Source: Flavobacteriales bacterium (GTDB lineage: Bacteria; Bacteroidota; Bacteroidia; Flavobacteriales_F; PHOS-HE28). From it: a stretch of DNA of 64,000 nucleotides. The notes beneath the pieces were generated by a model. That model was given only the letters and a program-made list of their open reading frames with translations, had not been told where the DNA came from and searched no databases. The stretch is from contig JABWBQ010000003.1 of the NCBI GenBank assembly GCA_013360395.1, positions 18,011 through 82,010 on the forward strand, in the 5' to 3' direction. Numbering within the stretch: the stretch's first letter is position 1; every line of letters starts with the position of its first letter. Both the position numbers and the translations under genes were made by a program. This document shows, piece after piece, positions 15,113 through 35,962 of the stretch.

Positions 15113-17182
15113 CTACGCTCGTTCCGAGCTACAGCGAACGAAGTACATCTCCATCTCGCCCTTGCCCTTGGCCTGCACTTTGCCGCGCGGGGTGAACGTG
15201 AGGCCGGTCTCGTTCTTCACCAGCACATACGTCGCTTCGCTGATGTTCACCTGGCCCACTTCGCCGGAAGATTCCATGCGGCTGGCGGTGTTCACGGTAT
15301 CGCCCCAGATGTCGTACTGGAACTTCTTCACGCCCACGATGCCGGCGACCACCGGGCCGGTGTGCACCCCGATGCGGATCTCGAAGTAGGGTTTGCCCGC
15401 CTCGATCTTCCGCTGCTTGCCTTCTTCGATGAAGTCGCGCATCTCCAGGGCAGCATTGATCGTGTCCACGGCGTGCGTGGTGTTGGCCAAAGGGAGACCA
15501 CCCGCCGCCATGTAGGCATCACCGATGGTCTTGATCTTCTCGATCCCGTACTTCTCCGTGATCTTGTCGAAGGCGCTGAAGCACTCGTTGAGGTCGCGCA
15601 CCAGTTCGCGTGGCGTAAGGTTCTCGCTCAGCGACGTGAAGCCTTTGAAGTCCGTGAACAGCACGGTGACCTGATCGATCTGCACAGCCTGAGCCTCGCC
15701 CTTCGCCTTCAATTCCTCGGCCACCTCTTCCGGCAGGATGTTGAGGAGCAATTCCTCGCTGCGTGCCTTTTCCTTGCTGATGCGGTTGCGCTGGATGAAG
15801 AAGACGAGGGCGAAGAGGGCCACGAGGGCGAAGCCGCCCACGAAGCCGTTGCGGATCACCTTCTGCTTCTGGATCTCCTTGGCCTGCACGGCTTTCTCGG
15901 CCACGAAACCGAGACTGTCGGCGAGCGCTTGTTTCTCGTAGTTGCGACGTAGGTCGAAGCCGATCACGGCCCGTTGGTTCTCCTCGGTGTTCAGGCTGTC
16001 CTGCAGTCGCGCGAAGAGCAATTGGGCCTCCAGCGCCTCCCGGTACTTCCCTGCGCGGTGGTAGACTTTCGCCAGCAACCCCGCCGCATCGCGCATGGGT
16101 GTGATGATGCCGTGTTCCCTGGCCAAAGCGAGCGCCTCCTCACCACGCCTGGCGGCTTCCTCCGGCTGGCCCATTTCGAACAGGACCTCCCCTTCATTCG
16201 TGAGCAGCTGGCTGCGACTCCATGGATCCCCGGTCCTCCCGGTGTGTCCGAGTCCTTCGCGGAACGCGGCCAAGGCACGTTGATGCTGGCCGGCCTTCGC
16301 GTACAGCTCGCCGATCTTGATGAGCGCCGAGGCCATGTTGTGCGCGTCATCGATGCTTTGCGCGAGCCGCAAGCCCTCGTTCAGACTGGACAGGGCTTGC
16401 GCCGTATCGCCTATCTCATTGTAAGCTCCTCCGATGTTCAGCAAAGCGGTGATCAGGTTCGGGACATCGTTCCGTTCGCGCTGGATGTTGGCGGCCATCC
16501 TGAAGTGACCGAGCGCCTTCTCATATTCGCCTTGCTTGGCGTACACCGTGCCCAGATTGCCTTCGGTGTTGGCCATGGCAGCGCTATCGCCGAGCGACCC
16601 GGAATGCTTCAGCGCCATGCGGTAGGCGTCGAGCGCGCGGTGTAGATCCCCTTGTTCCAGGTACGTGCTGCCCAGGCTGTTGTGCGCATTGGCCAATTGC
16701 AGAGTATCGCGCAACGCGGACTGTATGCGGATCGCGCGCGCCAGGACCACCAGCGCCGAGTCGTACAAGGCTCCGCGGGTGAGAAAAGTCCCCATGTTGC
16801 CGAGCGTCGCGGCCAACGTTGAGCTATCGCCGATGGCCTCGAACATGGGCAGCGTCCTGGCGCTGTACTCCGCGGCTTTCAAGGGTTGGCCACGCACATA
16901 CCAGGTGATGCCTTGCAGGTCGAGCGCCTTGGCCGCCCAGTGCTCCTGCCCAGGACCGAGCGCGCTGTGCTGCATGCCTTGCGCAAGGAGGAATGCGGTA
17001 TCGGGCCGGGTGAAGAGGAAGTTGTCCCAGATCCAATTGTAGTAGCCGTCGAAATACGTGCTGTCCGGCAGCGATGCGCGGTCAGGGGGCGGAGGGATGG
17101 CCGCCGACTGGCCCGATGCGAAATGCAGTGATGCAATGAATACGAGCACCGCAGCCAGCCGCAGGTTGAAGAGCGTGCTCAT
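15113..17182 (-). CDS. TPR-repeat sensor with a C-terminal class III adenylate/guanylate cyclase domain (689 aa)
   Basis: Signal peptide, about 9 TPR-like units (LGSTYLEQGDLHRALDAYRMAL, LGTVYAKQGEYEKALGHFRMA ...), one TM helix (FVGGFALVALFALVFFI), then the cyclase core VTVLFTDFKGFT...GDAYMAAGG...IRIGVHTGPVVAGIVG..YDIWGDTVNTASRMES. The start overlaps the upstream stop (ATGA). Confidence 0.9.
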   Translation of the reverse strand: MSTLFNLRLAAVLVFIASLHFASGQSAAIPPPPDRASLPDSTYFDGYYNWIWDNFLFTRPDTAFLLAQGMQHSALGPGQEHWAAKALDLQGITWYVRGQPLKAAEYSARTLPMFEAIGDSSTLAATLGNMGTFLTRGALYDSALVVLARAIRIQSALRDTLQLANAHNSLGSTYLEQGDLHRALDAYRMALKHSGSLGDSAAMANTEGNLGTVYAKQGEYEKALGHFRMAANIQRERNDVPNLITALLNIGGAYNEIGDTAQALSSLNEGLRLAQSIDDAHNMASALIKIGELYAKAGQHQRALAAFREGLGHTGRTGDPWSRSQLLTNEGEVLFEMGQPEEAARRGEEALALAREHGIITPMRDAAGLLAKVYHRAGKYREALEAQLLFARLQDSLNTEENQRAVIGFDLRRNYEKQALADSLGFVAEKAVQAKEIQKQKVIRNGFVGGFALVALFALVFFIQRNRISKEKARSEELLLNILPEEVAEELKAKGEAQAVQIDQVTVLFTDFKGFTSLSENLTPRELVRDLNECFSAFDKITEKYGIEKIKTIGDAYMAAGGLPLANTTHAVDTINAALEMRDFIEEGKQRKIEAGKPYFEIRIGVHTGPVVAGIVGVKKFQYDIWGDTVNTASRMESSGEVGQVNISEATYVLVKNETGLTFTPRGKVQAKGKGEMEMYFVRCSSERA

Positions 17183-18915
17183 TCCGCGATGGAACTTTCG
17201 ATCGTATTCAACCGCTCCAGCAGTTGCTGGATGAGCACACGCTGCTCATCGATCAACATTTGCTGCTCCTGAACGGCCTTCACCAAGGGTACGACGAATT
17301 CGGCGTAGCGCAGCCCAAGCATGCGGTCGCTATCGGTCACCTTGTCCACGCCGCTGAAATCATAGCCGACCGCTTTCGCCGCGGAATCCACTTCCTGGGC
17401 GATGAAGCCGGTATAGCGGATGGTCTCCTTCTCGCGCCGCGCCTGAAGGATCTCCTCGGGTTGCTCGCGTGGGATGCGACGTCCGAGTGAGTCCAGGGTG
17501 CTGTCTTCACCAAGGTCTTGTACGATACGGGCCACATCCACGTGGTAGGTAACCGGGCGCAGCTTGAGGATGAAGTCGAGGCCGCTCACATCCTCACGCA
17601 CATCGCGTTTGTAGCGCGCATCGCTGGGCAGCGTCGTCCAACCGGCATACCCGCCGATGCTCGTAACGGCATTGTTGCCCAACCGTACGCGGTTGCTGCC
17701 ATCGAGCGCGGTGCCGTAGCCGAGCGCGGTCGCATTGGTGTAGCCCGCTGCGTTCTGCACGATGTTCGCACCAACGATGGTGCTGTTGGCGGTTCCTGAC
17801 AAACCAGCTTGGTACCCGATGGTCGTGTTGTAGTTCTGGTTCGTGATGCCGATGCCGGCCTGGTAACCCACCGCGGTATTGTAGTCGCCCGTGACAGTGG
17901 AATTCACCCCGATCGCTTGGAAGCCGACAGCCGTGTTGTTCACACCGACCGTATTGTTCCACAAGGCGAACGCGCCGACAGCGGTGTTGTCACCCCCGGT
18001 GGTGTTGTCCTCCAGCGCTTCGGTGCCAACGGCCACATTGTAAATACCCGATGTATTGGCGAACAGCGCCGTACTCCCCACAGCCGTGTTCCCGTCGGCC
18101 ACGTTCGTGTACAGCGCGCTGCTGCCAACGGCCGTGTTCCCCGCGCCCAGCACGTTCACCCGAAGGGCATCGCTGCCTACCGCGGTATTGTCCGCTCCCG
18201 TGCCGTTGAAGAGCATCGCCTCGGAACCCACGGCGGTGTTGTCACTTGCCACGGTGACGTTCATAGCACGGAAGCCCACCGCGGTGTTGTTGCTGGTGCT
18301 CAGGTTCAGGTTCAAGGCCTGGCTGCCCAGGGCGGTGTTCTGGCCGCCCGTGGTGTTGGTGGCCAGCGCCTGGCTGCCCAGGGCGGTGTTATTGTTCGCC
18401 GTGGTATTGGCCGTGAGCGCGTTCTTGCCGACGGCCGTGTTGTTGGTGCCCGTGTTCACCATCAGTGCGCGATGGCCCCAGGACGTGGTGGTGCCGGACG
18501 GTGTGAGGAAGCCGCTGCGCTCGTTGTCCACGCGCACCTCCAACTGGTTGTTGTCCGTGGTGCCCAGGAAGTTGGTGCCGAGCGCCATGCCCGCATTCCC
18601 GGTCGTGCTCCAGCCTGTCGAGGCATTCAGTAGCGGTACCCACGCAGTGCTGTTGAAGTACCAGAAGCCGTTCGTGCTGCTGTCGAAGACCAACAGTCCC
18701 GTGGCCGGGGCGGCGATCGCCGTGCGCTCGGCCGTGGTCATGCGTGGTATCAGCAGCCCGCGTTTGGCGTTGGCCGGCAGGGCGGCAGCGCTCACATCGA
18801 GCAAGGCCGAACCATCCGGCGCCGATCCATCGACATTGATCCCGATGTTCTGCGCCCGGGTACCGCACACGAACGTGCACGCGAATAGCACAACAATGGC
18901 GGCCTTTTGGACCAT
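17179..18915 (-). CDS. tail-fibre-like surface protein with NTAxG repeats and a C-terminal S74 intramolecular-chaperone domain (F1)
   Basis: Signal peptide MVQKAAIVVLFACTFVCGTRAQ. Many NTA(V/L)G..AL repeats. C-terminus [54 protein letters not shown] is the endosialidase-chaperone (peptidase S74) pattern. I chose the ATG at 18915 because the 18936 ATG falls inside the predicted promoter spacer. Confidence 0.85.
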   Translation of the reverse strand: MVQKAAIVVLFACTFVCGTRAQNIGINVDGSAPDGSALLDVSAAALPANAKRGLLIPRMTTAERTAIAAPATGLLVFDSSTNGFWYFNSTAWVPLLNASTGWSTTGNAGMALGTNFLGTTDNNQLEVRVDNERSGFLTPSGTTTSWGHRALMVNTGTNNTAVGKNALTANTTANNNTALGSQALATNTTGGQNTALGSQALNLNLSTSNNTAVGFRAMNVTVASDNTAVGSEAMLFNGTGADNTAVGSDALRVNVLGAGNTAVGSSALYTNVADGNTAVGSTALFANTSGIYNVAVGTEALEDNTTGGDNTAVGAFALWNNTVGVNNTAVGFQAIGVNSTVTGDYNTAVGYQAGIGITNQNYNTTIGYQAGLSGTANSTIVGANIVQNAAGYTNATALGYGTALDGSNRVRLGNNAVTSIGGYAGWTTLPSDARYKRDVREDVSGLDFILKLRPVTYHVDVARIVQDLGEDSTLDSLGRRIPREQPEEILQARREKETIRYTGFIAQEVDSAAKAVGYDFSGVDKVTDSDRMLGLRYAEFVVPLVKAVQEQQMLIDEQRVLIQQLLERLNTIESSIAE

Positions 18916-18950
18916 GACCCAAAGCACCGCATCCATGCGGCAGCGTGCAA

Positions 18951-18966
18951 TAACCCGTGCGGGTTA
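18951..18966 (-). promoter_or_regulatory. 7-2-7 palindrome TAACCCG-TG-CGGGTTA (site 1), putative LuxR/NarL-type operator fused to a promoter
   Basis: Perfect inverted repeat. On the gene strand it reads GGGTTATTG - N20 - GTGCTTTG - N4 - ATG(18915), which matches Bacteroidota -33 TTG / -7 TAnnTTTG geometry. Confidence 0.55.
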
Positions 18967-19066
18967 GAACGCAATGCCGGACCCCCGGCACCCGTTTGGT
19001 CGCCAGGGGTCCGGTTGCAGGAGGCTCGCCGGGTAGGATCCGGCATTTGCCCTGCTCGACGTGTGA

Positions 19067-20986
19067 TCACCGTTTCTCGAGTTCTTCGATGCGCGCTTTC
19101 AGTTGTTCGATGATGGCTTGTTGCTCCTGTACGGCCTTCACCAGAGGCACCACGAAATCGGCATAGCGCAGGCCATACAGGCCCTCGGCGCTCGCCGGTC
19201 GGTCAACGCCACTGAAGTCATAGCCCAGCGAACGGCTGGCGGCTTCCACCTCCTGTGCAATGAAGCCCGTATAGCGGATACGCGACTGCTCATCGCGCGC
19301 TTGGACATCGAGCGGGTCTGTCCGGCGGATCTCCGCGCCGGTGCTGTCGTAACGCACGTCCTCCTTCAACTGCGCGGCCAAGCCATGAGCATCCACGTTG
19401 TAGGTCACTGGCCGCAGTTTCAGGATCAGGTCCAGTCCCTTCACATCCTCACGCACGGCGGTCTTGAAGCGACCATCGCTGTAGGTGGTGAAGCCGACCT
19501 GGCCTCTGATGCTGGTGATGCTGGTGTTGCCCACGTGTACCTTGTTACTGCCATCAGGACGCGCGTTGTAGCCGAGGCCCATGGCATTGGTATATCCCGT
19601 TGCCACGGGGAATGCAGCATTTCCCAGATAGGTGGAGTTGGTCATGCGGAAGAAGTTACCTGCATCGCGGCCCACACCTGTGTTGCCGCTATTGGTCGAG
19701 AGTGTTACGAATTTCAATGCGCTATGGCCTAGGGCGGTGTTGTTATCCCCCGCAGTATTCTGATTGAGCGCATTGTGCCCGATGGCGGTGTTGTATTGAC
19801 CGTCCGTATTGTCCGCTAGTGAGAAGGCGCCGACCCCCACATTGGTAGCGCTGGTCGTTGTTGAATAGAGGGAGCGATAACCGATGGCCACGTTGTAAGT
19901 GCCGCTCGTATTGATGGTCAGGGCTTCATATCCAACTGCCACGTTGCCGCTACCGTCATTGTTCTGGGCGTGAAGCCCACGCAGTGCACCAGCTCCAATG
20001 GCAACATTGGCCGTGACGCTATCCGCTTCGTACATGGCTTCGCTTCCGACTGCCACATTGTTGGAGCTGTAGTGGCCTGTTCCCAACGCATCCTTGCCCA
20101 ATGCCACATTGTCCCCTCCAGCGCGGTTTTCAAACAACGATCTATAACCAACCGCGAGGTTGTTGCTGCCACTTTCGTTTTCATAACCACTGAATGCACC
20201 AAACGCTGTATTACTCACTCCCTGATCATTCATAAGTGCGCGGCGCCCGATCGAGGTGGTGCCATTGGTGCTCAACAGTCCCGCATGCTCCCCATTGATC
20301 CTGAACCTCAACGGCATGAAATCCGTTGTTCCAATGAAGTGCGTTGCCGTATCCGTTCCTGCATTTCCCTGCAAGCCCCATGCGTTCAACGCGCCATCGG
20401 CGCCAGCGGGCCCTTGTGGCCCGGCAGCACCTTGCGCACCCGTGGCACCCATGGGGCCTGGTGGTCCTTGCGCTCCGGTGGCTCCGGTCGCACCCTGCGG
20501 CCCTGGTGGCCCCTGCGCCCCGGTCGCTCCTGCCGGCCCTGCGGGACCGGTCGCGCCTTGCGGCCCAGGAGCACCCACGGGACCTTGGGGGCCGGGCGTA
20601 TTGCTCGTCTCCGCGTACAGCGCATAGGGCACACTGAGCAATTGGGTCGTGCTGATGGTGACCCCGTTCACCCGGGTGCGTGCGAACCAGGGACCATCGC
20701 TCCAATCGACATCCGACCACGATCCGTTCACCGGTGTGCCCTGACCGAAGGCGAGGTTCACCAAGCCGAAAGCGTTCGTGGTGGCGGCGTGTTCTTCGCT
20801 GTACACCACGGGCCCATTGATGGCGCCTTGCAGCAGCGACAATTCGATGGCCGCCGGGGTGTTGGCTTGCACCACACCATTGCCGTCACGAACGATGGCT
20901 TGGTAGCTGAAGCTCTGCGGTGTTTGCGCGCACAGGGCCGTGCAGGCCATCAATGCGCACATCAGGAAGGAAGGTCGCTTGTTCAT
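19067..20986 (-). CDS. tail-fibre-like protein with a collagen-like triple-helix segment, NTAxG repeats and a C-terminal S74 chaperone domain (F2)
   Basis: Signal peptide [21 protein letters not shown]. 22 uninterrupted G-X-Y triplets. C-terminus [54 protein letters not shown]. Confidence 0.85.
20393..20593 (-). repeat. collagen-like G-X-Y repeat region inside F2
   Basis: [67 protein letters not shown], 22 consecutive Gly-X-Y triplets (aa 132-198). Confidence 0.85.
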
Positions 20987-21453
20987 TGGGTCACGATGAA
21001 GGGGATGGTCCGCAGTTCATTGTTGCCACGATCGAAGACCTGCAGGCGGTACGCGCCACTGGCCAGGTGATCGACGGACCAGGAGTTGGTCGATGTGATA
21101 CCGGACCACATGGCGACGTGTTGGCCGAGCGCGTTCAGCACGACCGCATGGTGTGCTTCGGAAGCGTTGGTGTTGAGCCGCAGCAGGTCGCGCGTGGGAT
21201 TCGGGAAGAGCTGCCAATCCGCGTTGGCGGTTACCGGAACGACCACCGTACTGAAGTCGGCCGGTGGTTGGTGGAACCCTTGCGTGACTATCACGGCCGG
21301 GCTCGTACCGGTCGCGATCATCGGTTCTCCGATGGTCCAGGCCCAATGCAGTCCCCCGCCATTCCCTTCACTGCCGCTCGGGGCCAGAACGGTTTGCGCG
21401 CGAGCGTTCTGCGTGAGCATGGCCGCCAGCACAAGGATCGCCGTGCGCATCAT
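20983..21453 (-). CDS. small secreted protein with a T9SS C-terminal sorting domain (156 aa)
   Basis: Signal peptide [21 protein letters not shown]-terminal [13 protein letters not shown]...[22 protein letters not shown] is typical of the type A T9SS CTD. ATGA overlaps with both neighbouring genes. Confidence 0.7.
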
Positions 21454-23000
21454 CGCTTCAGGAGCTTGACAGCGGATCGAACGAGGCCATTGTCCACGTG
21501 CAGCGTGTAAGCGCCCGGAAGCAGTGCGCCCAGATCCGCCTGGATCAATGCGTCACCGGTAACAGGGAGCGTCCAGTTGCGCACCGACCTGCCCGTGGCA
21601 TCCAACAGTTCGCACCGAACGGCACCGGTGCTGCCCGCTCCCAGCCGGATGATGGCACGGTCGGTCACCGGGTTCGGGAATACGCCGATCATCGTGCTGT
21701 TCGCTTCTTCAGCAAGGCCTGAAGAGATGTCGTTCAGGTATTTGATGAGCACGATCCGGTTGTGCCCGGCGACTTCGGCGTATCCAATGCCGATGATGGC
21801 ACTATCATTGGTGAAGGCCAGGTCGAAACAGGTCTCCTCGCCGCCGTCCTCATCGTAGTCGGCGGCTTGGAACGCGCCATTGTTGGTGAGGTTGCTCTGC
21901 TTGCGTTCCACGTTCCAGTTCCGGGAGCTGGGACCATCCGCCACTTCACCGCCGCTGATGATGAGGCCGTTGTTCTGCACCAGCAGGCTGTTCCAGCCAT
22001 CCGCTCCATCCGAGCTGTCATGGAACGCATTGACGATCACATCACCGGATGCATCAAAGGTGTAGATGATGCGTGCTTGCGTTAGGCCGCTTGTGCGCTG
22101 CACGCCGGCCACTGCGAAGCCCCCGCCCGGCAAAGTGGCGACCGTTCGACCAATAAGGTCCGATCCGCTGATCTCCACGCGGGAATGGCCGTTGGCGTTA
22201 CCGAAGCTCGACGGATTGTTGCCCGTTGCATCGACATGTCCGAGCAGGAGTGACTGATCGGTCACTCCCGTGGGGTATGCGAACCCGCTGAAGTAGATGC
22301 CGCCGTCGGCGCCGAGCACCGCACCCCGGAGCTGCTCGCCGGTTGCGCCGAAGATCCCGACCAGAACCGAGCCGTCGCCACCGAACGTGGCGTCCGGACC
22401 GCCATTGTCCAGGTAGCGCTCCACCACGATCTCCGTGAACTCCGTGCTTGGGCCGCTGAAGCCACAGAGCACGATCTTACCATCGGGCTGGATCAGCACT
22501 TCGTAGGCCTCCTCCGCATCCGGGGTGTTGTGCATGTCGCGCACCAGGATGCCCGTGCCGTTGAACGAGGGATCCAGGGAACCATCGGCGAGGAAGCGCG
22601 CCACGAACATGTCGCTGTTGGTCTCTGCCGCATCGGAGAACAAGTGGCCGCCCACCACCAAACGGCCCTGGTCGTCAAGTTCCGCGGAGCGGATGAATTC
22701 ACTACCGGCGGCCAGGTCGTGCTGCACCACGCCGTTGGCACCGAATGTGGCGTCCGGCGAGCCATCGGCATTGAAGCGCAGGAGGACGGAATTGAAGTAA
22801 GTGCCATTGCTGGTGCGCCCGGCCACCAGGATGCGGTCGTCCGGCAGCACCACGGCGGTCACACTCTGGTCATCCTCCCCCGCACCCAGCTGGGGGACGA
22901 TGACTTTTCCGTTGTTACCGAATGAAGGGTCCCAGGTGCCTGGCTGGGCGTACGTCCCCATGGTGAGGAGCGCGAGGAAGGGAAGGATGGCGTGTCGCAT
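21450..23000 (-). CDS. delta-60 repeat protein with a T9SS C-terminal sorting domain
   Basis: Repeated DPSFG.NGKV...DDRILVAG / DATFGANGVV...DDQGRLVVGG / DPSFNGTGIL...PDGKIVLCG units (delta-60 repeat pattern). C-terminal VFPNPVTDRAIIRLG...[20 protein letters not shown] chose the ATG at 23000; the track start at 23027 is a TTG. Confidence 0.8.
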   Translation of the reverse strand: MRHAILPFLALLTMGTYAQPGTWDPSFGNNGKVIVPQLGAGEDDQSVTAVVLPDDRILVAGRTSNGTYFNSVLLRFNADGSPDATFGANGVVQHDLAAGSEFIRSAELDDQGRLVVGGHLFSDAAETNSDMFVARFLADGSLDPSFNGTGILVRDMHNTPDAEEAYEVLIQPDGKIVLCGFSGPSTEFTEIVVERYLDNGGPDATFGGDGSVLVGIFGATGEQLRGAVLGADGGIYFSGFAYPTGVTDQSLLLGHVDATGNNPSSFGNANGHSRVEISGSDLIGRTVATLPGGGFAVAGVQRTSGLTQARIIYTFDASGDVIVNAFHDSSDGADGWNSLLVQNNGLIISGGEVADGPSSRNWNVERKQSNLTNNGAFQAADYDEDGGEETCFDLAFTNDSAIIGIGYAEVAGHNRIVLIKYLNDISSGLAEEANSTMIGVFPNPVTDRAIIRLGAGSTGAVRCELLDATGRSVRNWTLPVTGDALIQADLGALLPGAYTLHVDNGLVRSAVKLLKR

Positions 23001-23055
23001 GTTCCTGTGGTTGTTCGTCCACAGCAAAACACGCGAGCCCCGGACGTGTCATCAA

Positions 23056-23071
23056 TAACCCGTGCGGGTTA
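23056..23071 (-). promoter_or_regulatory. 7-2-7 palindrome TAACCCG-TG-CGGGTTA (site 2)
   Basis: Same 16-mer as site 1. It overlaps the stop codon of the response regulator. On the gene strand it reads GGGTTATTG - N20 - GTGTTTTG, 27 nt before the ATG at 23000. Confidence 0.5.
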
Positions 23072-23734
23072 AGCAGACCCATCCTTCGGATACCCTTGGG
23101 GGTAGGCCTTCTTCAGCGCCTCCATCTTCCCGTTCACCTGCAGCTTGCTGTAGATGCGGCGCACATGCACGCGCACGGTCTCGGTGCTCAGTTCAAGCTT
23201 GGCGCCGATCTCCTTGTACTGGAGACCTGCGGCCAGTCCATCGAGCACCTGCTTTTCCCGTTCGCTCAACTTCTCGTCGTTGATGCGCTGCCGGGTCTCC
23301 TTCTGGAAGCTGTTCACCACCAGCCGCGCGATGGCGCTGTTCATGGGCGACCCGCCGCGGTGGATGTCGCGCACCGCTTCCAAAAGCTCTTCGGCGGGTG
23401 TGCTCTTCAACAGGTATCCGGTCGCCCCGGCGCAAAGCGCTTCGAAGATGTACGCCGGGTTCTCGAAAATGGTGAGCATGAGGTACTGCACTTCCGGCTT
23501 GCGGCGTTTGGCCTCCCGCACGGTATCAATGCCGTTGCGGCCGGCCATGTTGATGTCCATGAGCACCACATGCACATCGAGTTCTTCCAGCTTGGCCAGG
23601 AAGTCATCGCCGCTCTCGAACACACGAACCACCTGCATGTCACTGCTGCGCTCAATACGGCGGCGGATCAGCGTACGGAGCTCATCGTCGTCCTCCACGA
23701 TGGCGGTGCGGATGGTGGTGGGCATGACCCGCAA
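23069..23734 (-). CDS. LuxR/NarL-family response regulator (REC + HTH_LuxR), RR1
   Basis: AIVEDDDELRTLI...VVLMDINMAGRNGID (receiver Asp), and LSEREKQVLDGLAAGLQYKEIGAKLELSTETVRVHVRRIYSKLQV (LuxR HTH). Confidence 0.9.
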   Translation of the reverse strand: MRVMPTTIRTAIVEDDDELRTLIRRRIERSSDMQVVRVFESGDDFLAKLEELDVHVVLMDINMAGRNGIDTVREAKRRKPEVQYLMLTIFENPAYIFEALCAGATGYLLKSTPAEELLEAVRDIHRGGSPMNSAIARLVVNSFQKETRQRINDEKLSEREKQVLDGLAAGLQYKEIGAKLELSTETVRVHVRRIYSKLQVNGKMEALKKAYPQGYPKDGSA

Positions 23735-23748
23735 GATAGCGGCCCCCG

Positions 23749-26109
23749 CTATTCCGCTGGTAGCGACACCGCGAAGTCCACCCGGGTACCCGCTCCTGCC
23801 GCGCTGACCACATCGAACTTCCCACCGATCCGCTCTGCCCGGGACCGCATGTTCCCCAGGCCATGCCCATGGCCGGCGTTCACCGTCATGCCCACCCCAT
23901 CATCCTTCACCTGGAACGCGACCCGATTGGCCGACGTGTGGAACACCACCTGGATATGGTGGGCCTTGGCGTACTTGATCGCGTTGTTCAGCGCCTCGCG
24001 CAGCATAAGATAGATGTCGCGTTTGGTGGCAGGGTCCAGCGACCGGTCGGGGCCTTCGTGAACACAGTCCACGGTGTGCTCCAGCTTGCTCCATTTCAGC
24101 ATGCGATGGCAATGCGCGCGAACGCGCTCTGTGAGCCCTGCGAGCGAATCATGGTGCGGATCGATGGCCCACACGATATCGCCCAGTGAACGGTTGGCTT
24201 CACCGGCGATGCGCTCTATGTCGTTGGCGATCTCAGGAAGCCCGTTCGTTCCGGTATGGGCCACCTCCCTGGCCTCGGTGCTGAGCAGAACGAGCTTGGT
24301 GAGGTCGCTGCCGAGCTGATCATGCACGTCACGTGCGATGCGCGTGCGCACCTCGCTGGCTTCGCGGGCGCGCTCGCTCTCGACAAGACGGGCTTGGGCG
24401 TCCAGTATGGCCGCGTTCTTCTCGGCGAGCAGCTTCCGGCTCCGCCGGGCACCACGAAGGAGCGCGAACAAGAGCGCGCCGATCAGCGCGGCCACCGCGA
24501 TGCCGGCGGCAAGCAGGGTGTTACGCCTTCGTTGATCAACGATCTCCTCTCCCTGCCGCGTGTTCGTTTCGGAGAGGACTTTGAGCTCCGCATCCTTGCG
24601 TTCCGATTCGAATCGCTTGTTCAACAAGTTGACATGTTCGATGCGATCCAGGTCGAGCAAGCTGTCCTTCGCTGCCACGTACAGTTGCAGGTTGCGCAAC
24701 GCGGCGGCGGCATCACCGTTGCGATCGTGCACCTCGTACAGGGCCAGGCTGGCATCGCGTGTCATTTCCAACCAGCCTTCACGTGCGGACAAGGCGATCA
24801 CGGAGTCCAGTACGGTGATCGCGGAGACCCGGTCGGCAGGACTGATGAGCGCCAGCGTGCGGGCATGCTCCACACCGATGCGCGCGGCGTCCATGCGCAT
24901 GTTCGGGGCTGCCACCACCTTCAGCGCCTGCTCCAGGTACGTGCGGGAGCGCGGCAGGTCGCCCTTCAGGCGATAGGCGGTACCGAGATATTGCAACAGA
25001 TAGGCTTGGAGGCTGGATTCGTACAGGGAAAAAGCCCCGCTCGCTCCCTCACTGAACCGGCGTTCCGCTTCGTGCAGGACCACCAGGCTGGTGTCGGCCC
25101 GACCGGTCTTCAGACAAGACCTTCCCAAGTTGAGCAGGATCTCGAAGCGGTCCCACGACCGCTTCGGACCTCCATCAATGGATAGCGCCTGCCTGAGATG
25201 TCCCACGGCACTGGCGTGATCGCCAAGGTCCGCGAACCGCGCGGCAATTTCGCTATGCATCCAGGGCCTGTACGTGGTTGAGCGAAGTCGTTCCGCCAGC
25301 CTCAGGGCCTGTAGGCCGTATCGGATGGCCTCGGCATGTTCTCCCGAGTAGGCGGCCAGAGCTTCCAACTCGCTCAGTGCGATAAGTTCCTCCCTGGGGA
25401 GTTCCGCAGCACGGCTCAAGGCCAGGTGTTCAAAAGCGAGGCGCTCCATGGCGGTGAAGTCCTCCCTGGCCATCGCCGCGTTGAACAACACATCGAATCG
25501 ATCCACCAGCAGAAAGGTGTCTTGTGCGTTGCGGACGATCCGTTCGATCTCGTTCTCGAGCGAATCCGCGGTCCGCGGCGTGAGCCCCTCGTCATAGAGG
25601 TCGATCGAGAGCACCCAGTATCGCCCGGTCGCCTCCTGGTGACGGTCGAACAGCGCTCGGGCCCGTTGGTTGTACATCGCACGAAGGCTGTCCTGTCCCG
25701 CCACTTGTGAGAGATCCATGAATGCGCACCAGTAGGCGTATCCAAGATCCCTTTCCGGGCCATGCTCCTGCAGAAGGGTGATCGCCTTCCTTATTTCTTC
25801 AGCGTCACCGCCCCTGTCCATATCGGTCTGCTTTGCCGCGATCTTCCTTACGATGGCGCTGCCGAGCAGACTGTTCTCGTTGAGGCGCTCGGCGAGCGCC
25901 ATGGCCTCTTGTGCGGCTTCCATCGCGCTCACGGGATCCCCGCCGCACTGGTACCACGAGAGGCGCTCGAGCTTGCGGGCGCGTTCGAGCATGCTCAGGT
26001 CCTCCCGGGCCAATTCGGTCTTCAGCCCGCGGATGATGGCATTCTGCCCGACCGTCATGCACGCGAGCGCCTGGCAGACCCCCAGGAGAAGGAAGCGGAT
26101 CGACGGCAT
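23749..26109 (-). CDS. TPR-repeat sensor histidine kinase (HisKA_3/HATPase), HK1
   Basis: Signal peptide, long TPR-like ectodomain, TM helix (LLAAGIAVAALIGALLFALL), then RIARDVHDQLGSDLTKL (H-box of the NarX/DesK type) and LREALNNAIKYAKA...DDGVGM...GHGLGNMRSRAERIGG. Confidence 0.9.
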   Translation of the reverse strand: MPSIRFLLLGVCQALACMTVGQNAIIRGLKTELAREDLSMLERARKLERLSWYQCGGDPVSAMEAAQEAMALAERLNENSLLGSAIVRKIAAKQTDMDRGGDAEEIRKAITLLQEHGPERDLGYAYWCAFMDLSQVAGQDSLRAMYNQRARALFDRHQEATGRYWVLSIDLYDEGLTPRTADSLENEIERIVRNAQDTFLLVDRFDVLFNAAMAREDFTAMERLAFEHLALSRAAELPREELIALSELEALAAYSGEHAEAIRYGLQALRLAERLRSTTYRPWMHSEIAARFADLGDHASAVGHLRQALSIDGGPKRSWDRFEILLNLGRSCLKTGRADTSLVVLHEAERRFSEGASGAFSLYESSLQAYLLQYLGTAYRLKGDLPRSRTYLEQALKVVAAPNMRMDAARIGVEHARTLALISPADRVSAITVLDSVIALSAREGWLEMTRDASLALYEVHDRNGDAAAALRNLQLYVAAKDSLLDLDRIEHVNLLNKRFESERKDAELKVLSETNTRQGEEIVDQRRRNTLLAAGIAVAALIGALLFALLRGARRSRKLLAEKNAAILDAQARLVESERAREASEVRTRIARDVHDQLGSDLTKLVLLSTEAREVAHTGTNGLPEIANDIERIAGEANRSLGDIVWAIDPHHDSLAGLTERVRAHCHRMLKWSKLEHTVDCVHEGPDRSLDPATKRDIYLMLREALNNAIKYAKAHHIQVVFHTSANRVAFQVKDDGVGMTVNAGHGHGLGNMRSRAERIGGKFDVVSAAGAGTRVDFAVSLPAE

Positions 26110-26144
26110 GCGGCGAAGGTGCGCGGAGTTTAGCGCATGGGCAA

Positions 26145-26160
26145 TAACCCGCTCAGGTTA
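26145..26160 (-). promoter_or_regulatory. 7-2-7 palindrome variant TAACCCG-CT-CAGGTTA (site 3)
   Basis: Extended symmetry AATAACC...GGTTATT. On the gene strand it reads GGGTTATTG - N20 - CACCTTCG - N4 - ATG(26109) of HK1. Confidence 0.45.
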
Positions 26161-26353
26161 TTCCGTGCCCGACCGCGCCCTGAAGACAAGGTACGTGCTT
26201 TCTGTGCATGAACTTGTCATGCTGTTCGAGCCGCCCGAGTGTTCCGCACGTCGGCGCATGTCTCTCAAGCCATGGCGTTCCAGGCATCCATGCCCGCACC
26301 TTCCTCCTTCACCTTGTGCTACACCTCGCTGTATGAGGTGCGCAAGCGAAGCA

Positions 26354-28363
26354 TCAGCTGGTTGCAAGTTCGACCTCCAGCCGCACCAAGGTGCCTGCGC
26401 CCGGTTCACTGGCGATCACCAACTCCCCGCCGAGCCGCTCGGCCCGCTCCTTCAGGTTGCGCAAGCCGCGCGCTTTGCGCAGCGCATTGGCCGTGTTGAA
26501 GCCGATGCCATCGTCCTTCACCTCCAGCCGGATGCGCTGTTCCCGCGCCACGAAGCGCACATGGATGCAATGGGCTTGTGCATACTTCACCGTGTTGTTC
26601 ACCGCCTCGCGCAGGATCAGGTAGAGATCGCGTTTGGTGGCGGGATCGAGCGGCCGGTCCCGGCCTTCCACGATGCAGTCGACGGTGTAGGTGGCGCCGC
26701 TGGTGCTGAGCATGCGCTCGCAGAACTGGCGCGACCGGTCCATGAGATCCGTGAGCTTGTCGTGTGCGGGTTCCACGGCCCAGACGATATCGCTCAGTGA
26801 GCGCCCCGCTTCGCTGGCGATGCGGTCGATGTCGGCCACGAGACCGGGGACCGCGCCCGGATCATCCTTCAGGCTCGCGTTCACTTCGCTGCCCAGCATG
26901 CTCAACTTGGTGAGGTCGCCGCCCAGCTGGTCATGCACATCGCGGGCGATCCGTGAGCGTACCTGCTCGGCCTCGCGCTGCTTCTCGGTGGCCACCACCT
27001 TGTCCTGTGCCGCGAGTATGGCCGCATTGGCCTTGCGTGTGATGCGAAAGCGGCTCCACAAGGCGATGGCCAGAGCGAACGCCAGCACGCACGCACCGAT
27101 GATGATGTATCGCCGGGTGCGTTCGCTCTCCAGCTGATGTGCATGTTCCAAGGCCATGGTACGCGCGCTGCTCACGTGCTCCAGGCTATCGCGCAATTCC
27201 TCTTCGCGGAAGCGCAAGAACAGCAAGGCTTCGCGCCCGTTCATGTGCTCCACGCTGTCCTTCAGCACGCTCCAGCGGTCGCTCACCTCGAGCGCTTCGG
27301 CCGCGCGACCTTGGGCTTTCAGTGCAGCCCGTAGTCCGTTCAGTGCGTACAGCATCGATCCTTCATCGCCCAGCTCGCGTGCTACGCCGACGTTGCCGAT
27401 GTCCTCCGCCAACGCGAGTCCGCGACGGTACCACTGTTCCGCAGCGCGATGGTCGCCGGAGCGGCTTAGGCCATCACCGATCAAGTTGATGCAGCCGCAT
27501 TCGGCGGTCTGATCACCCATGCGCGCAGCGAGCAGTGCGCACGTGCGCGCGGTGCGAAGCCCATCGGCCGGCATATCTCGCTCATAGTACAAGCGCGTGA
27601 GCGGGGCGAGCGCAGGCAGGCTATCCCAGGCATTGTCCGCGCGGCCCGCCACGTCCAAACTCCGCAGCAGCAGCGCCTCAGCATCATCCGCGCTGCCTTG
27701 CAACTGCCGGATACGGGCGCGTTCAACAAGGACCATGGCGGAGTCACCGGCGGATCCGTTCGCGCAGGAGTCGAGGCACGCCCATGCGATGTCGTACTCT
27801 TTGCGCGCCGCATGGATGCCAGCCAGATGGGTAAGCGCTTGGATGCGCAAGCCCTTGTGGCCGATGGACCGTGCGATGCGGAGTTCATCGCGGTAAGCAC
27901 GCTCCGCATGGTCTTCGGCCCCGGCCAGGCCGTAGACAAGTCCCAGCGCATCGAGGCATTCCCCAACGGCATGTTCGTGCCCACCCTCCTGGAGATCCGT
28001 GATCGCTTGCTGGAACGAGGCGAGCGCCCGCGGGATGTTTCGCTCGAATTTGGCATGGTAGCCGGTGAAGTAGTGGAACGCACCTCTGGCATGCCGGGCT
28101 CGCTCGCGCACACGGGTCGCGGGGTGCAGCAAGAGTTCTGCGCTCAACGTGTCCAAGCGATGCAGAAATGGGAAAGCCTTCGGCGAGGTGGACCATGACT
28201 CACACGCCCGAATGAGCATGGTGAGTTGCAATGTGTCCTTCTTCGCGGGATCGAGGAGCGGGATGATGGAGTCGAGCCGCGCGGGGTTCTCTTGCGCCCT
28301 GAGCACCCCATGGCAGAGGAGCCCAAGAAGAACTACGAATGCCTTTGCGCACGATCCGGTCAT
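26354..28363 (-). CDS. TPR-repeat sensor histidine kinase, HK2 (paralog of HK1)
   Basis: Signal peptide MTGSCAKAFVVLLGLLCHGVLRAQ, TPR-like ectodomain, TM helix, RIARDVHDQLGGDLTKL, LREAVNNTVKYAQA...DDGIGF. I chose the ATG at 28363; the track start at 28495 would run through the promoter palindromes. Confidence 0.85.
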   Translation of the reverse strand: MTGSCAKAFVVLLGLLCHGVLRAQENPARLDSIIPLLDPAKKDTLQLTMLIRACESWSTSPKAFPFLHRLDTLSAELLLHPATRVRERARHARGAFHYFTGYHAKFERNIPRALASFQQAITDLQEGGHEHAVGECLDALGLVYGLAGAEDHAERAYRDELRIARSIGHKGLRIQALTHLAGIHAARKEYDIAWACLDSCANGSAGDSAMVLVERARIRQLQGSADDAEALLLRSLDVAGRADNAWDSLPALAPLTRLYYERDMPADGLRTARTCALLAARMGDQTAECGCINLIGDGLSRSGDHRAAEQWYRRGLALAEDIGNVGVARELGDEGSMLYALNGLRAALKAQGRAAEALEVSDRWSVLKDSVEHMNGREALLFLRFREEELRDSLEHVSSARTMALEHAHQLESERTRRYIIIGACVLAFALAIALWSRFRITRKANAAILAAQDKVVATEKQREAEQVRSRIARDVHDQLGGDLTKLSMLGSEVNASLKDDPGAVPGLVADIDRIASEAGRSLSDIVWAVEPAHDKLTDLMDRSRQFCERMLSTSGATYTVDCIVEGRDRPLDPATKRDLYLILREAVNNTVKYAQAHCIHVRFVAREQRIRLEVKDDGIGFNTANALRKARGLRNLKERAERLGGELVIASEPGAGTLVRLEVELATS

Positions 28364-28399
28364 TGGGCAAATGTGCTCAGTCCGGAACGGCTCCACCAA

Positions 28400-28415
28400 T
28401 AACCCATTGGGGTTA
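28400..28415 (-). promoter_or_regulatory. 7-2-7 palindrome variant TAACCCA-TT-GGGGTTA (site 4)
   Basis: On the gene strand it reads GGGTTATTG - N21 - CACATTTG - N4 - ATG(28363) of HK2. Confidence 0.5.
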
Positions 28416-28427
28416 GCGCGCTCGGCA

Positions 28428-28443
28428 TAACACGGACGGGTTA
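28428..28443 (+). promoter_or_regulatory. 7-2-7 palindrome variant TAACACG-GA-CGGGTTA (site 5)
   Basis: It faces the plus-strand gene: GGGTTATTC - N20 - CTGCTTTG - N19 - ATG(28494). Confidence 0.45.
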
Positions 28444-28493
28444 TTCCACCACGCGACAGGATGGACCTGCTTTGTCCACAAGCCTGAGCGAAC

Positions 28494-31307
28494 ATGAGGA
28501 CCTATAGACCCCTATTCACCATCTGCGCTCTTGCGATCGCATCCGTGGTGGTTTCCCAGAACTTCACCATCGATCCGGCATTCTGGCATTTGGACGATGG
28601 ACTGGGGTATTGCGTGATGGAGGACACGGTGGCTGACCGGATCCTGGTGGGTGGTGAGTTCGAGCGGGTGATGCCACCAACCCCGATACCGTACGGAGTG
28701 GAGTTGAATGCGACGAGCGGGCTGGCGACAGAGGGCTACCCCATTGCGGACAGCACGGTCCGGTGCGTGATACCGGATGGCACTGGTGGATGGATCATCG
28801 GCGGCGCCTTCACCCAAGTGGGTGGACAGCCGCGACAACATCTGGCGCACATCCTGGCCGATGGCAGCTTGGCATCGTGGAGCCCAGCGGTGAATGGACT
28901 TGTGCTTTCGCTCGCGCTGAAAGGAGACACGGTCTATCTGGGAGGCCTGTTCTCTAACGTGAACTCGGCAGCACGCAGCAATCTCGCGGCCGTACGACTT
29001 TCCACCGGTGCCAACGTGACCTGGGCCGCCGGTACGGCGAATGGCATTGTGCGCTGCATGTCACTGAGCACGGGAAGGCTCTTTGTGGGAGGGGATTTCA
29101 CGACAGTGAACGGGACCTCAAGGCCGCGCGGCGCATCGTTCACGTTGAACAACCACGCACTCACCAACTGGACGCCGAATGCGAATGGTAGTGTGTACTG
29201 CATTGCGGCCACCTCGACCGTGGTGTACATAGGGGGTGCCTTCACCTTGGTGAACACGTTGATGGTGCGCAATCGACTTGCGGCCTTCCCACCAACCTCC
29301 AACACCCCGACAGCTTGGAACCCGAACGCGAACGGTACCGTTCGCGCGATCGCCTTATCGGGAACCGACGTCTTCTTCGGCGGCGACTTCAGCCAGGTGT
29401 CCTTGACAGCGCGCAACCACATCGCACTGGTGAACGCCAGCGGGGTTCTTCAGAGTTGGAGCCGTGACCTGGATGGTGACGTCCATTGCCTGACCGTGGC
29501 GAACAATGTGCTCTACACGGGCGGCGATCTCACCTTGGTGGATGGCAAGGGACGGCAACGGCTGGTGGCCTTCGGCGTGCCCGGTTCGGGGCTCCCCACC
29601 ATCACGGACTGGTCACCCGCCACTGAGAACACCGTGATGAGCATCGCTGCGCAAGGAGGGGCGCTGTTCGTGGGCGGCGTGTTCCAGCGAGGTGGCGGGT
29701 TGTCGCGTCGCAACATCGTGGCGTTCGATCCCGCCACCGGTTCGCCTACCGCGTGGGCTCCGCAAGCGAACAATGCGGTGTTCGCGCTTGAGCGTGCTGG
29801 AACCGGTGCCGTGTTCGCCGGAGGCGACTTCAGCCAGCTCGGTGGGGCCGCCCGCACCGGTCTTGCGGCCATTGATCCCGTGAGCGGTGAGGTGCTGCCT
29901 TGGTCCGTTCCCCCGGATACGATCCATGTGACCGACCTGGCCGTGCAAGGTGATACCCTGTTCGTGTGCGGGGCTTTCCGGAACATGGGCGGACAGGCGC
30001 GAGAGCATCTGGCTGCGGTCTCGATCAGCGCAGCGGTCACCCTTCCATGGAACGTAGCTCTGGGTGCTGTGGATAAGCCCACGGACCTGCTTGTGGAGAA
30101 CGACACGCTCTACCTCTGCGGGGCGCTCTCCTCCGTTGGGGGCCAGCCGCGCAACGGTGTTGGGTCCATCAAGGTGTCCACATCCACTGTGCTCGGCCTT
30201 TCGGCGGGGTTCCTTCCGGCGGACTGGTCCGTGTCGCAATTGGCCAAGGCCGCCGGAAAGCTGTTCATCAGTGGTGTGACGGACGAATTCGGCGTCGGGA
30301 CGAACGCCTATGTCTTGGATGCCGTCTCCGGAGCGGTCGCGGCGTATTCCATCAGCGGCTACCAATGCGTTGCGGCATATCAGGACCGGTTCTATGCGGG
30401 TTATGCCGGGCCAGTGGTGCTCGATGCGCGGACGGGGATCGAACTTGCCAAAAAGTACGTCCCCGACTTTTTCGCTTTGGACCTGATCAGGGCGCGGAAC
30501 GGGGATCTGTTCGCCGTGGGGTACTACTTCGGCACAACAGACAAGGTGGTGCACCTGCATGCCGATCCCGGAAATGCCATCCGCGTGATGCTGGATGGTC
30601 CGTTCGTGGCCGGATCCATGTCGAACCCGTTGCGTGATCAGGCGCTGATCCCGCTGACCGAACCGTACACGGCATTGGGCTATGTGCACAGCGGCGGTGG
30701 CGGCGGTGAGGTCGCTCCGGCCAATATCCACACAGTGTCATTGGGGGGTGCAGGGACGGAAGTGGTGGATTGGGTGCTGGTGGAATACCGCGACCCACTG
30801 GATGCCGCGAACATTGTCGCTTCGTTCAGCTGTCTGCTATTGGAGAACGGGACCGTTCGAACAAGCGATTGGGGTCAATTGCCCACGTTCGTTCCGGATC
30901 CCAACGGGTCATACTTCGTGGCCGTGCGCCACCGGAATCACCTCGGCGTGATGACCGCGCAGCCGGTGGACTTCTCCACCAGCCCGTTCATCGACTTCAC
31001 CTGGCCAGCTACTCCCGTTTTCGGGAACAACGCGCGCAAGACCAACAGCGGAACAGGCGTGCTGTGGAGCGGCGATGTGAACTTCGATGGCACCATCAAG
31101 TACACGGGAGCGAACAATGATCGCGATCCGGTGCTGGTGCGCGTTGGTGGTACCGTACCGACCAATACGGCGGCCGGCTATTTCAGCGAGGACGTGAACA
31201 TGGACGGCCTGGTGAAATACACAGGTTTCAAGAACGACCGCGACCCGACCCTGGTGAACGTTGGAGGTATTGTGCCAACGAACGTCCGGGAGGAGCAATT
31301 GCCCTGA
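28494..31307 (+). CDS. large secreted repeat protein (predicted beta-propeller repeats plus a C-terminal module with two dockerin/EF-hand-like Ca-binding loops), 937 aa
   Basis: Signal peptide MRTYRPLFTICALAIASVVVSQ. About 11 units of GG.F..V.G..R..LAA....G....W.P..NG.V. The C-terminus has VDWVLVEYRD...AVRHRNHLGVM and the duplicated DVNFDGTIKYTGANNDRDPVLVRVGG / DVNMDGLVKYTGFKNDRDPTLVNVGG. Confidence 0.8.
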   Translation: MRTYRPLFTICALAIASVVVSQNFTIDPAFWHLDDGLGYCVMEDTVADRILVGGEFERVMPPTPIPYGVELNATSGLATEGYPIADSTVRCVIPDGTGGWIIGGAFTQVGGQPRQHLAHILADGSLASWSPAVNGLVLSLALKGDTVYLGGLFSNVNSAARSNLAAVRLSTGANVTWAAGTANGIVRCMSLSTGRLFVGGDFTTVNGTSRPRGASFTLNNHALTNWTPNANGSVYCIAATSTVVYIGGAFTLVNTLMVRNRLAAFPPTSNTPTAWNPNANGTVRAIALSGTDVFFGGDFSQVSLTARNHIALVNASGVLQSWSRDLDGDVHCLTVANNVLYTGGDLTLVDGKGRQRLVAFGVPGSGLPTITDWSPATENTVMSIAAQGGALFVGGVFQRGGGLSRRNIVAFDPATGSPTAWAPQANNAVFALERAGTGAVFAGGDFSQLGGAARTGLAAIDPVSGEVLPWSVPPDTIHVTDLAVQGDTLFVCGAFRNMGGQAREHLAAVSISAAVTLPWNVALGAVDKPTDLLVENDTLYLCGALSSVGGQPRNGVGSIKVSTSTVLGLSAGFLPADWSVSQLAKAAGKLFISGVTDEFGVGTNAYVLDAVSGAVAAYSISGYQCVAAYQDRFYAGYAGPVVLDARTGIELAKKYVPDFFALDLIRARNGDLFAVGYYFGTTDKVVHLHADPGNAIRVMLDGPFVAGSMSNPLRDQALIPLTEPYTALGYVHSGGGGGEVAPANIHTVSLGGAGTEVVDWVLVEYRDPLDAANIVASFSCLLLENGTVRTSDWGQLPTFVPDPNGSYFVAVRHRNHLGVMTAQPVDFSTSPFIDFTWPATPVFGNNARKTNSGTGVLWSGDVNFDGTIKYTGANNDRDPVLVRVGGTVPTNTAAGYFSEDVNMDGLVKYTGFKNDRDPTLVNVGGIVPTNVREEQLP

Positions 31308-31372
31308 TGCGGAACAAGCACCAGCCCGGAAAGGATCTTGTGCTGGTGGCAAGGGTTCAGGTGTTTTGCTTC

Positions 31373-32527: not shown

Positions 32528-32671
32528 CGTGTGTTTACGGTAACCGCTTTGCGTGTCGCCTGAAAACCACGCCGATCCCGATCCTTTGCGGCCCGATCAG
32601 CGACCAGGCCCCGGCTGCTCATCCCATTGTCTGATCTTCTGATCGCCTAATTTTCTGATCGCCAGATCGCC

Positions 32672-32761: not shown

Positions 32762-32811
32762 AGTGGAATTGCACGGCCGCTGCTTCCTTGGCACTTTCGT
32801 AGTTCGGAAAC

Positions 32812-35879: not shown

Positions 35880-35962
35880 GGGCATCCCCTACTACTTTTA
35901 GAGCATTGCGGGGGCCGCGCGCGCGACATTGCTTTGTTCTGTCGGACTATCCGGCACACCCG

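Follow-up and report, generated by a model that had tools for sequence, protein, structure and literature searches.

Does a short inverted repeat that recurs in front of the genes of a little-studied two-component module constitute the operator of the response regulator encoded beside it, and what would that regulator do there? This question was raised by a stretch of 64,000 nucleotides (nt) from a Flavobacteriales bacterium (assembly GCA_013360395.1, contig JABWBQ010000003.1, positions 18,011 to 82,010), hereafter the window, in which the initial annotation had noticed five copies of a 16-bp palindrome, TAACCCG-NN-CGGGTTA, and had proposed them as a candidate operator of the LuxR/NarL regulators of the locus. 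The regulator in question is RR1 (23069-23734, minus strand), and it is accompanied by the sensor kinases HK1 and HK2, the tail-fibre-like protein F1, and several proteins with C-terminal domains of the type IX secretion system (T9SS). Our analysis indicates that the palindrome is probably an operator of RR1, a NarL/FixJ-family member, in uncultured high-GC Flavobacteriales, occupying a class-II-like position and most likely activating transcription.

A search of the window with TAACCCGNNCGGGTTA and up to two mismatches returned exactly five sites, where 0.13 were expected by shuffling, and none of 100 shuffled windows reached that number. The pattern is real and far beyond chance. These were the five positions listed in the initial annotation, and the statement that the motif is found nowhere else in the 64 kb was borne out by the same search. 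When three mismatches were allowed, a single extra match was obtained, at 39533; it had no promoter geometry and was judged by eye to lie inside the asnS coding sequence, an open reading frame (ORF) with no Pfam match. Each of the copies lies between genes and is oriented toward the gene downstream. Box 1 (18951-18966, minus strand; gene strand TAACCCGCACGGGTTA) and box 2 (23056-23071, minus strand) are perfect and identical, the former upstream of the operon of F1 and an adenylate cyclase, and the latter in front of the DUF5122/T9SS operon, where it overlaps the stop codon of RR1. Box 3 (26145-26160, minus strand; gene strand TAACCTGAGCGGGTTA) has one mismatch and precedes HK1-RR1, box 4 (28400-28415, minus strand; gene strand TAACCCCAATGGGTTA) has two mismatches and precedes HK2, and box 5 (28428-28443, plus strand; TAACACGGACGGGTTA), with one mismatch, serves the divergent plus-strand promoter, its centre being 28 bp from that of box 4. 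Moreover, the extended proximal arm GGGTTATT was found five times in the window against 0.44 expected, only at the palindrome sites and always toward the downstream gene. A duplication remnant was ruled out, as the two identical sites (18951 and 23056) have unrelated flanks.

Promoters of Bacteroidota carry a TTG at -33 and TAnnTTTG at -7, separated by a spacer of about 19-21 nt, and dimers of NarL/LuxR-type helix-turn-helix (HTH) domains bind inverted heptamers in a 7-2-7 arrangement. At all five sites, both by reading and with a script, GGGTTATT(G/C) was followed after 20 nt (21 for HK2) by an nnnnTT(T/C)G box, reproducing the fixed geometry and gene-strand orientation first described for this locus. 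For F1 (18913-18950, minus strand), the TTG at 18948-18950 is followed by 20 nt, GTGCTTTG at 18920-18927, 4 nt, and the ATG at 18913-18915. The HK1 promoter (26107-26144, minus strand) has the TTG at 26142-26144, 20 nt, CACCTTCG at 26114-26121, 4 nt, and the ATG at 26107-26109, and that of HK2 (28361-28399, minus strand) has the TTG at 28397-28399, 21 nt, CACATTTG at 28368-28375, 4 nt, and the ATG at 28361-28363, confirming the 4-nt distance that had been reported for these three genes (starts at 18915, 26109 and 28363). The remaining two promoters have leaders: the DUF5122/T9SS promoter (22998-23055, minus strand) shows the TTG at 23053-23055, 20 nt, GTGTTTTG at 23025-23032, a 24-nt leader, and the ATG at 22998-23000, and the promoter of the gene at 28494 (28444-28496, plus strand) shows a TTC at 28444-28446, 20 nt, CTGCTTTG at 28467-28474, and a 19-nt leader before the ATG at 28494. 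A sigma-70 promoter search of the 17-32 kb part of the window found none.

In published work, sigma-A promoters of Bacteroidota have TTTG near -33 and TAnnTTTG near -7 (PMC7366714), and the -7 box of Flavobacterium psychrophilum spans -12 to -5 (PMC9723704). If the last G of the box stands at -5 here as well, transcripts of genes whose ATG follows after 4 nt would begin with the A of that codon, and the F1, HK1 and HK2 mRNAs are thus predicted to be leaderless. The same box position places the TTG at -35 to -33 and the 16-mer at -51 to -36, with a deduced centre of -43.5, or -44.5 where the spacer has 21 nt (HK2). The leaderless prediction for three of the five promoters stands out, given how seldom leaders are short or missing in the species studied: 5' untranslated regions below 10 nt make up 3.7% in B. 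thetaiotaomicron (PMC7366714), and leaderless mRNAs 5.5% in F. psychrophilum (PMC9723704). A TTTG, a short spacer and an ATG were also found at a few other genes of the window, indicating that near-leaderless starts are not exclusive to this set of genes; the palindrome is.

RR1 and its orthologues

RR1 contains an N-terminal receiver (REC) domain (Pfam Response_reg, E = 1.8e-24) with the acidic pocket, phospho-acceptor Asp and conserved Thr and Lys, the motifs EDDDE, LMDINM, MLT and YLLK being read in the sequence, and a C-terminal four-helix GerE HTH (Pfam, E = 4.8e-17) with the recognition helix TETVRVHVRRIY, its likely start being the ATG at 23725. Receiver domain, GerE HTH and nearby HisKA_3 kinases together make it a member of the NarL/FixJ (LuxR-type) response regulators, and according to Pfam and the loci of relatives the module has no other conserved DNA-binding protein. 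In full-length alignment, the solved structures closest to RR1 were those of VraR, NarL, DesR and DevR. The RR1 helix TVRVHVR lies on TVKVHVK of NarL, with R-V-H-V-R at K188-V189-H-V-K192. In NarL, K188, V189 and K192 contact bases; the protein binds 7-2-7 sites, and that at yeaR, TAACCAATAAATGGTA, is centred at -43.5, whereas that at ogt is centred at -44.5 (PMC10853779).

The palindrome analyzed here likewise consists of two inverted 7-bp elements, 2 bp apart; its half-site starts with TAACC as at yeaR (TAACCCG against TAACCAA, five of seven positions), and it abuts the upstream promoter element with the deduced centre at -43.5, or at -44.5 as in ogt. Architecture, half-site start and position match those of a well-studied relative. 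The NarL heptamer consensus is TACYYMT, and TAACCCG agrees with it at five of seven positions. In addition, E. coli NarL and RR1 both pair a REC-GerE regulator with a HisKA_3 kinase, which would phosphorylate RR1 as its kinase does NarL, and both have a TV(K/R)VHV(K/R) helix in which the base-contacting positions are conserved or conservatively replaced. The two systems also differ: RR1 is only a distant relative of NarL (phmmer E = 8e-25), and R178, which contacts the alpha C-terminal domain in NarL, is not conserved in it as read from the alignment; the promoter is of the Bacteroidota sigma-A type (-33 TTG, -7 nnnnTTTG) instead of -35/-10, with three targets predicted to be leaderless; the kinases are of the TPR type and not NarX; and the genes controlled would encode secreted fibre/T9SS proteins and an adenylate cyclase. 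A second comparison is offered by the LuxR/TraR activators, dimeric proteins whose GerE-type HTH sits on a palindrome at or abutting the upstream promoter element, at about -42.5. A GerE-type HTH dimer, predicted in our case, on a palindrome abutting that element is common to both, but those proteins have an autoinducer-binding domain where RR1 has a receiver, and their palindromes measure 18-20 bp with another half-site spacing.

Next, RR1 was used to scan genomes, and about 20 kb around each regulator was compared (loci numbered L001 to L143). Orthologues of 96-75% identity were found in six metagenome-assembled genomes (MAGs) of Flavobacteriales/Bacteroidota (L001-L006), along with 74 more distant NarL-type regulators of at most 49% identity. 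In L001-L005, the palindrome was present upstream of the orthologues of HK1, HK2, F1 and the DUF5122 gene, with the TTG, the spacer length of 20 or 21 nt, the kind of -7 box and, in many cases, the 4-nt gap before the ATG retained, whereas the sequence of the spacer had diverged. Matches with up to two mismatches numbered 15 in 107 kb at the loci of RR1 orthologues versus none in 1.10 Mb at the 74 other loci. In agreement, the helix TVRVHVR was found in none of the 74 distant regulators and in every RR1 orthologue except that of L004, where it reads TIRVHVR, V being conservatively replaced by I. In L006, asnS comes immediately after the RR1 orthologue, and neither a target gene nor a box was present after the regulator. 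In all, the palindrome and its geometry were footprinted in at least five other species-level MAGs and in many metagenome contigs.

The metagenome scan demanded the box together with the promoter geometry and gave 56 loci, on contigs too short to provide a genome-wide background frequency. According to a rough estimate, about 10-15 of the 56 may be chance matches, and low-GC matches with no downstream ORF look so. The 19 matches in high-GC Flavobacteriales all lay before homologues of module genes, beside RR1 orthologues, or both, and an FGE-sulfatase-like protein was a further target among them. Boxes preceded the F1 orthologues in L001, L002, L003, L108 and L109 and HK1 homologues in L003, L082 and L114, and stood directly after the RR1 stop codon in L001-L005, L107, L109, L120 and L135. 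An identical box 4, again with the 21-nt spacer, was found in L002, where the pair of boxes 28 bp apart also recurred, and HK2-type boxes with a 21-nt spacer were present in L097, L103 and L125. Divergent promoter pairs had one box each, 28, 27 or 14 bp apart, which favours a strict positional requirement.

Pooling gave 39 unique sites with the consensus TAACCCg-na-cGGGTTA-TTG, whose information content is symmetric (TAACCCg/cGGGTTA) and low at the two central positions. The spacer had 20 nt in 34 of them and 21 nt in five, four of these at HK2-type promoters. None of the 39 -7 boxes started with TA. Promoters outside the proposed regulon carry the TA fully or partly, as in TATTTTTG at 47694 and CATATTTG at 39964 of the window and in the TACCTTTG box at a TetR gene in L142, and we infer from the TA-less boxes that these promoters may depend on an activator. 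Compared with known Bacteroidota sigma-A promoters, the TTG and nnnnTTTG are 20-21 nt apart here too and the 4-nt gap between box and ATG fits the published box position, but the TA is missing at every pooled site and three of the five boxed promoters of the window are predicted to give leaderless mRNAs. Literature searches on the motif and on TPR/HisKA_3/LuxR systems in Flavobacteria found nothing relevant.

Paralogous regulators and their boxes

A second module of the window consists of HK3 (32812-35211, plus strand), RR2 (35241-35879, plus strand), which sequence comparison identified as a paralogous NarL-type regulator with the recognition helix TETVRKHARNIY, and F4. Inspection of the window sequence upstream of HK3 and F4 revealed no RR1 palindrome, as the initial annotation had noted, and a different 7-2-7-like box in its position. 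The RR2 helix, TVRKHAR, differs from that of RR1 at the equivalents of NarL V189 and V191. Its boxes are TGCTACT-AA-AGTGGAA (32753-32768, plus strand), before ATTG-N20-CACTTTCG and upstream of HK3, and TACTACT-TT-TAGAGCA (35890-35905, plus strand), which lies directly after the RR2 stop codon, before TTG-N20-TTGCTTTG and upstream of F4. The pattern occurred twice in the window against 0.00 expected. Both boxes were also present in L108, which has an RR2-like regulator, and the pattern predicted from the window and L108 was then found in L137 and L138, these three being its only occurrences among the 143 loci. The proposal that the palindrome serves the LuxR/NarL regulators of the locus therefore stands for RR1 and not for RR2, which has its own box at the same position.

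The search for RR2 homologues returned a large family, with 4,946 members at E <= 1e-40 and several helix classes, and the contexts of seven members were retrieved for box comparison. With the helix RVHVRR of RR1 (window, L001-L005 and others) goes the box TAACCCG-NN-CGGGTTA, and with RKHARN of RR2 (window, L108, L137, L138) go TACTACT-AT-TCRAGCA and TGCTACT-NN-nGTGGnA; in L137 and L138 the former stands directly after the regulator stop codon, and in L138 also before a second target gene. The helix RKHARH of L139 is accompanied by the hybrid boxes TACCACT-AT-CGGGTTA and TACCACT-AT-CGGGGCA. For RKHVRN (L140, L142, and L141 with the variant HKHVRN), the boxes were TACCACG-AA-AGTGGTA, TACCACT-AA-CGTGTTA, TACCACT-AA-GGTGTTA and TACCACT-TT-GTGGGTA, this class C (TACCAC) pattern being found only in L140-L142, L139 and L005, and for RRHVHS (L143) the box was TAGCACA-CG-CGTGTTA. 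The heptamers TACCACT and TACTACT agree with the NarL consensus at six of seven positions. Immediately after every one of these boxes stands TTG-N20-nnnnTTTG. In L141, the class C box is preceded by a regulator gene (1-600; helix TVHKHVRN) that appears frameshifted and is either a pseudogene or an assembly error.

As the box changes with the helix while the rest stays constant, the adjacent regulator is indicated as the binder, and this is the strongest argument available. A wider reading of these data, on which we are evenly divided, is that paralogous modules (TPR kinase, NarL-type regulator, and fibre, T9SS or adenylate cyclase targets, often beside asnS) have expanded, each kept apart by a 7-2-7 operator of its own, located at exactly -43.5 on promoters that are for the most part leaderless, with the residues at the NarL V189/V191 positions (V/V, K/A, K/V, R/V) specifying heptamer positions 3 to 5 (TAACCCG, TACTACT, TACCACT, TAGCACA). 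If true, GerE-type HTH domains would follow a recognition code that occurs in nature and can be read, and regulators and operators would have diverged together after duplication. With the paralogue-specific boxes, a small set of natural examples is available for studying how helices of the GerE type read DNA.

Proposed regulation and its alternatives

In the mechanism that we propose, the TPR/HisKA_3 kinases HK1 and HK2 would phosphorylate RR1, and an RR1 dimer would bind the two inverted heptamers of a box that abuts the -33 TTG of a Bacteroidota sigma-A promoter and would span about -51 to -36 (centre -43.5, or -44.5 for HK2). From there it would most likely activate promoters whose -7 boxes lack the consensus TA. 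Box 3, upstream of HK1-RR1, implies autoregulation, which would be positive with the HK1-RR1 and HK2 promoters under RR1. The regulon in the window would comprise five promoters and eleven genes, with three operons for secreted or surface proteins, i.e., DUF5122 beta-propellers with T9SS domains, collagen/S74 tail-fibre-like proteins and the TPR adenylate cyclase. That RR1 autoregulates its kinases and drives the fibre/T9SS genes from a class-II-like position had already been suggested, and the footprinting, the co-occurrence with RR1 orthologues only, the helix match and the -43.5 centre speak for it; RR1 binding, the transcription starts and the sign of regulation are all deduced from sequence. 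As a bacterial gene switch, the proposed NarL-family operator with its class-II-like placement is well supported but ordinary and brings no new kind of mechanism; of greater interest are the regulon, for its predicted leaderless mRNAs, and the operators specific to each paralogue. The deduced centre of -43.5 suggests that the activation geometry of NarL also works on the unusual sigma-A promoter of Bacteroidota, and the proposal provides a concrete, testable operator, regulon and promoter model for an abundant, unstudied two-component family whose hosts are uncultured high-GC Flavobacteriales from wastewater and freshwater metagenomes.

Several points weigh against this reading. The view was limited to about 20 kb per regulator, and hence the regulon and the background frequency are local ones. 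The helix-to-box code is not one-to-one, as shown by the hybrid boxes of L139 and L005; classes B to D rest on one to four genomes each, and their patterns were partly defined after seeing the sequences. Moreover, TAACCC-N4-GGGTTATTG was found in low-GC Bacteroidota beside NarL-type regulators with other helices (TVKKHIHN, TVKRHLKN). In L088, L090 and L128 (TVKKHIHN), it stands before a proper TAnnTTTG box, upstream of the regulator itself; in L081, L096 and L129 (TVKRHLKN), the box lies directly after the regulator stop codon, upstream of a GH5 cellulase, with -7 boxes that have no TA (GTCTTTTG, GTTTTTTG). In the high-GC locus L094 (5788-5834), TAACCCGTTCGGGTTATTG, a perfect copy, was found upstream of genes for a Reg_prop/Y_Y_Y-HisKA_3 kinase and for a regulator with the helix TVRVHLK. 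TAACCC half-sites may be used more widely by this regulator family in the phylum. Lastly, contact with the -33 element would be just as compatible with repression.

This last point leads to the first alternative, that RR1 binds the palindrome as a repressor blocking sigma-A region 4 at the -33 TTG, with signalling relieving or imposing the repression. The direct contact between box and -33 element is compatible with it, NarL-family proteins repress at some promoters, and nothing that was computed gives the sign of regulation. However, the distance is strictly fixed, being 20 nt in 34 of the 39 sites, as is needed by activators that must touch RNA polymerase, repressors tolerating variable positions; divergent promoters have separate boxes even when these are 14 bp apart; -7 boxes with no consensus TA, as at all 39 sites, are typical of activator-dependent promoters; and the position equals that of the activating NarL site at yeaR. 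We consider repression unlikely.

A different dimeric factor encoded elsewhere, for example a cyclic AMP (cAMP)-responsive regulator tied to the adenylate cyclases, could bind the palindrome, and RR1 would then be a mere neighbour. Adenylate cyclase genes are consistently part of the modules, and with about 20 kb seen per genome such a gene could lie outside the view; yet the motif tracks RR1 orthologues exactly, a different recognition helix comes with a different box although kinases, fibres and promoter geometry do not change, the 7-2-7 arrangement and the TAACC of the half-sites resemble NarL and not CRP, and the modules share no other conserved DNA-binding protein, making this explanation quite improbable.

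That the inverted repeat acts as a nucleic-acid hairpin (terminator-like or of the repetitive extragenic palindromic, REP, type) or as part of an alternative sigma-factor promoter, with no protein operator, is barely credible. In its favour, box 2 comes immediately after the stop codon of RR1, and the repeat could fold into a 6-bp stem closed by a 4-nt loop. However, a T-run after the repeat is lacking, four of the five boxes lie upstream of the predicted start and so outside their own transcript, the distal half is kept as an inverted copy that a sigma -35-type element would not need, and TTG-N20-nnnnTTTG fits sigma-A. Among the 39 sites, half-site departures were confined to one arm in 31 cases, compensatory in three, and present in both arms with no complementarity in seven; this mostly one-sided pattern indicates a protein site rather than a hairpin. 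A hairpin, terminator or REP element was ruled out on these uncompensated changes and on the number of terminator-like sites, nine against 11 expected, and scans of the window for structured RNA (Rfam) and tRNA found none.

Genes and operons around the boxes

Pfam analysis was used to assign the genes of the module. On the minus strand, the TPR adenylate cyclase (15113-17182) overlaps by 4 nt with F1 (17179-18915), a tail-fibre-like protein with a Peptidase_S74 chaperone domain, and the two form the F1-adenylate cyclase target operon (15113-18915), which has the same synteny in L108 and L109. The second target operon (19067-23000, minus strand) contains three genes whose stop and start codons overlap by 4 nt, encoding a collagen-repeat and S74 fibre protein (19067-20986), a small protein with a T9SS C-terminal sorting domain (20983-21453), and a DUF5122 beta-propeller with a T9SS C-terminal domain (21450-23000). 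HK1 (23749-26109) and HK2 (26354-28363), both on the minus strand, are sensor kinases with TPR, HisKA_3 and HATPase_c domains; the end of HK1 is 14 nt from the RR1 ORF, and the HK2 start at 28363 is backed by orthologue alignments. On the plus strand, a large DUF5122 beta-propeller protein (28494-31307) is followed by the S74 fibre-like F3, within the ORF 31261-32463. With the operons defined by overlapping stop and start codons, the five boxes would control eleven genes between 15113 and 32463. Through this module, TPR sensor kinases would be connected with cAMP synthesis as well as with secreted proteins of the fibre-like and T9SS types.

Between the stop codon of the collagen/S74 gene and box 1 (18967-19066), an inverted repeat, AATGCCGGAtCC ... 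GGgTCCGGCATT, was observed with its arms about 60 nt apart; it is partly similar in L001 and may separate the two operons as a terminator or insulator. Upstream of F3 (31340-31380), TTG-N20-GTGTTTTG-cttc-ATG was found, preceded by the degenerate box-like AGCCCGGAAAGGATC, and the ATG after this box, at 31373, is out of frame with the F3 ORF. TPR adenylate/guanylate cyclase genes are regular members of such modules, being present in the window (15113-17182), in L138 (1-4926) and in L139 (1198-3642 and 9278-13793). Tandem copies were also seen, up to three in L138, and the window cyclase would be co-transcribed with F1, which suggests that the two-component output feeds into cyclic-nucleotide signalling.

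The second module is flanked by asnS sequences. A diverged 5' fragment of this gene (32664-32762), of about 30 codons followed by a stop, lies just upstream of HK3-RR2-F4, and the full asnS (38429-39883) comes after F4. Identity between the fragment and the resident 5' end is about 70%, the core GTGGCCGGCTGGGTGCGCACC being the same in both, and the fragment stops exactly where the RR2-type box of HK3 begins. Kinase-regulator-fibre modules adjoin asnS in several relatives (L006, 8150-8240; L143, 10173; L140, 446), and asnS therefore has the appearance of a hot spot for module insertion or exchange.

The G+C content of the window is 63%, and two 2-kb stretches, 4001-6000 (0.54) and 58001-60000 (0.51), are lower than the rest (about 0.63-0.65). 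No tRNA or Rfam RNA was found in these stretches, and they may contain foreign or atypical genes.

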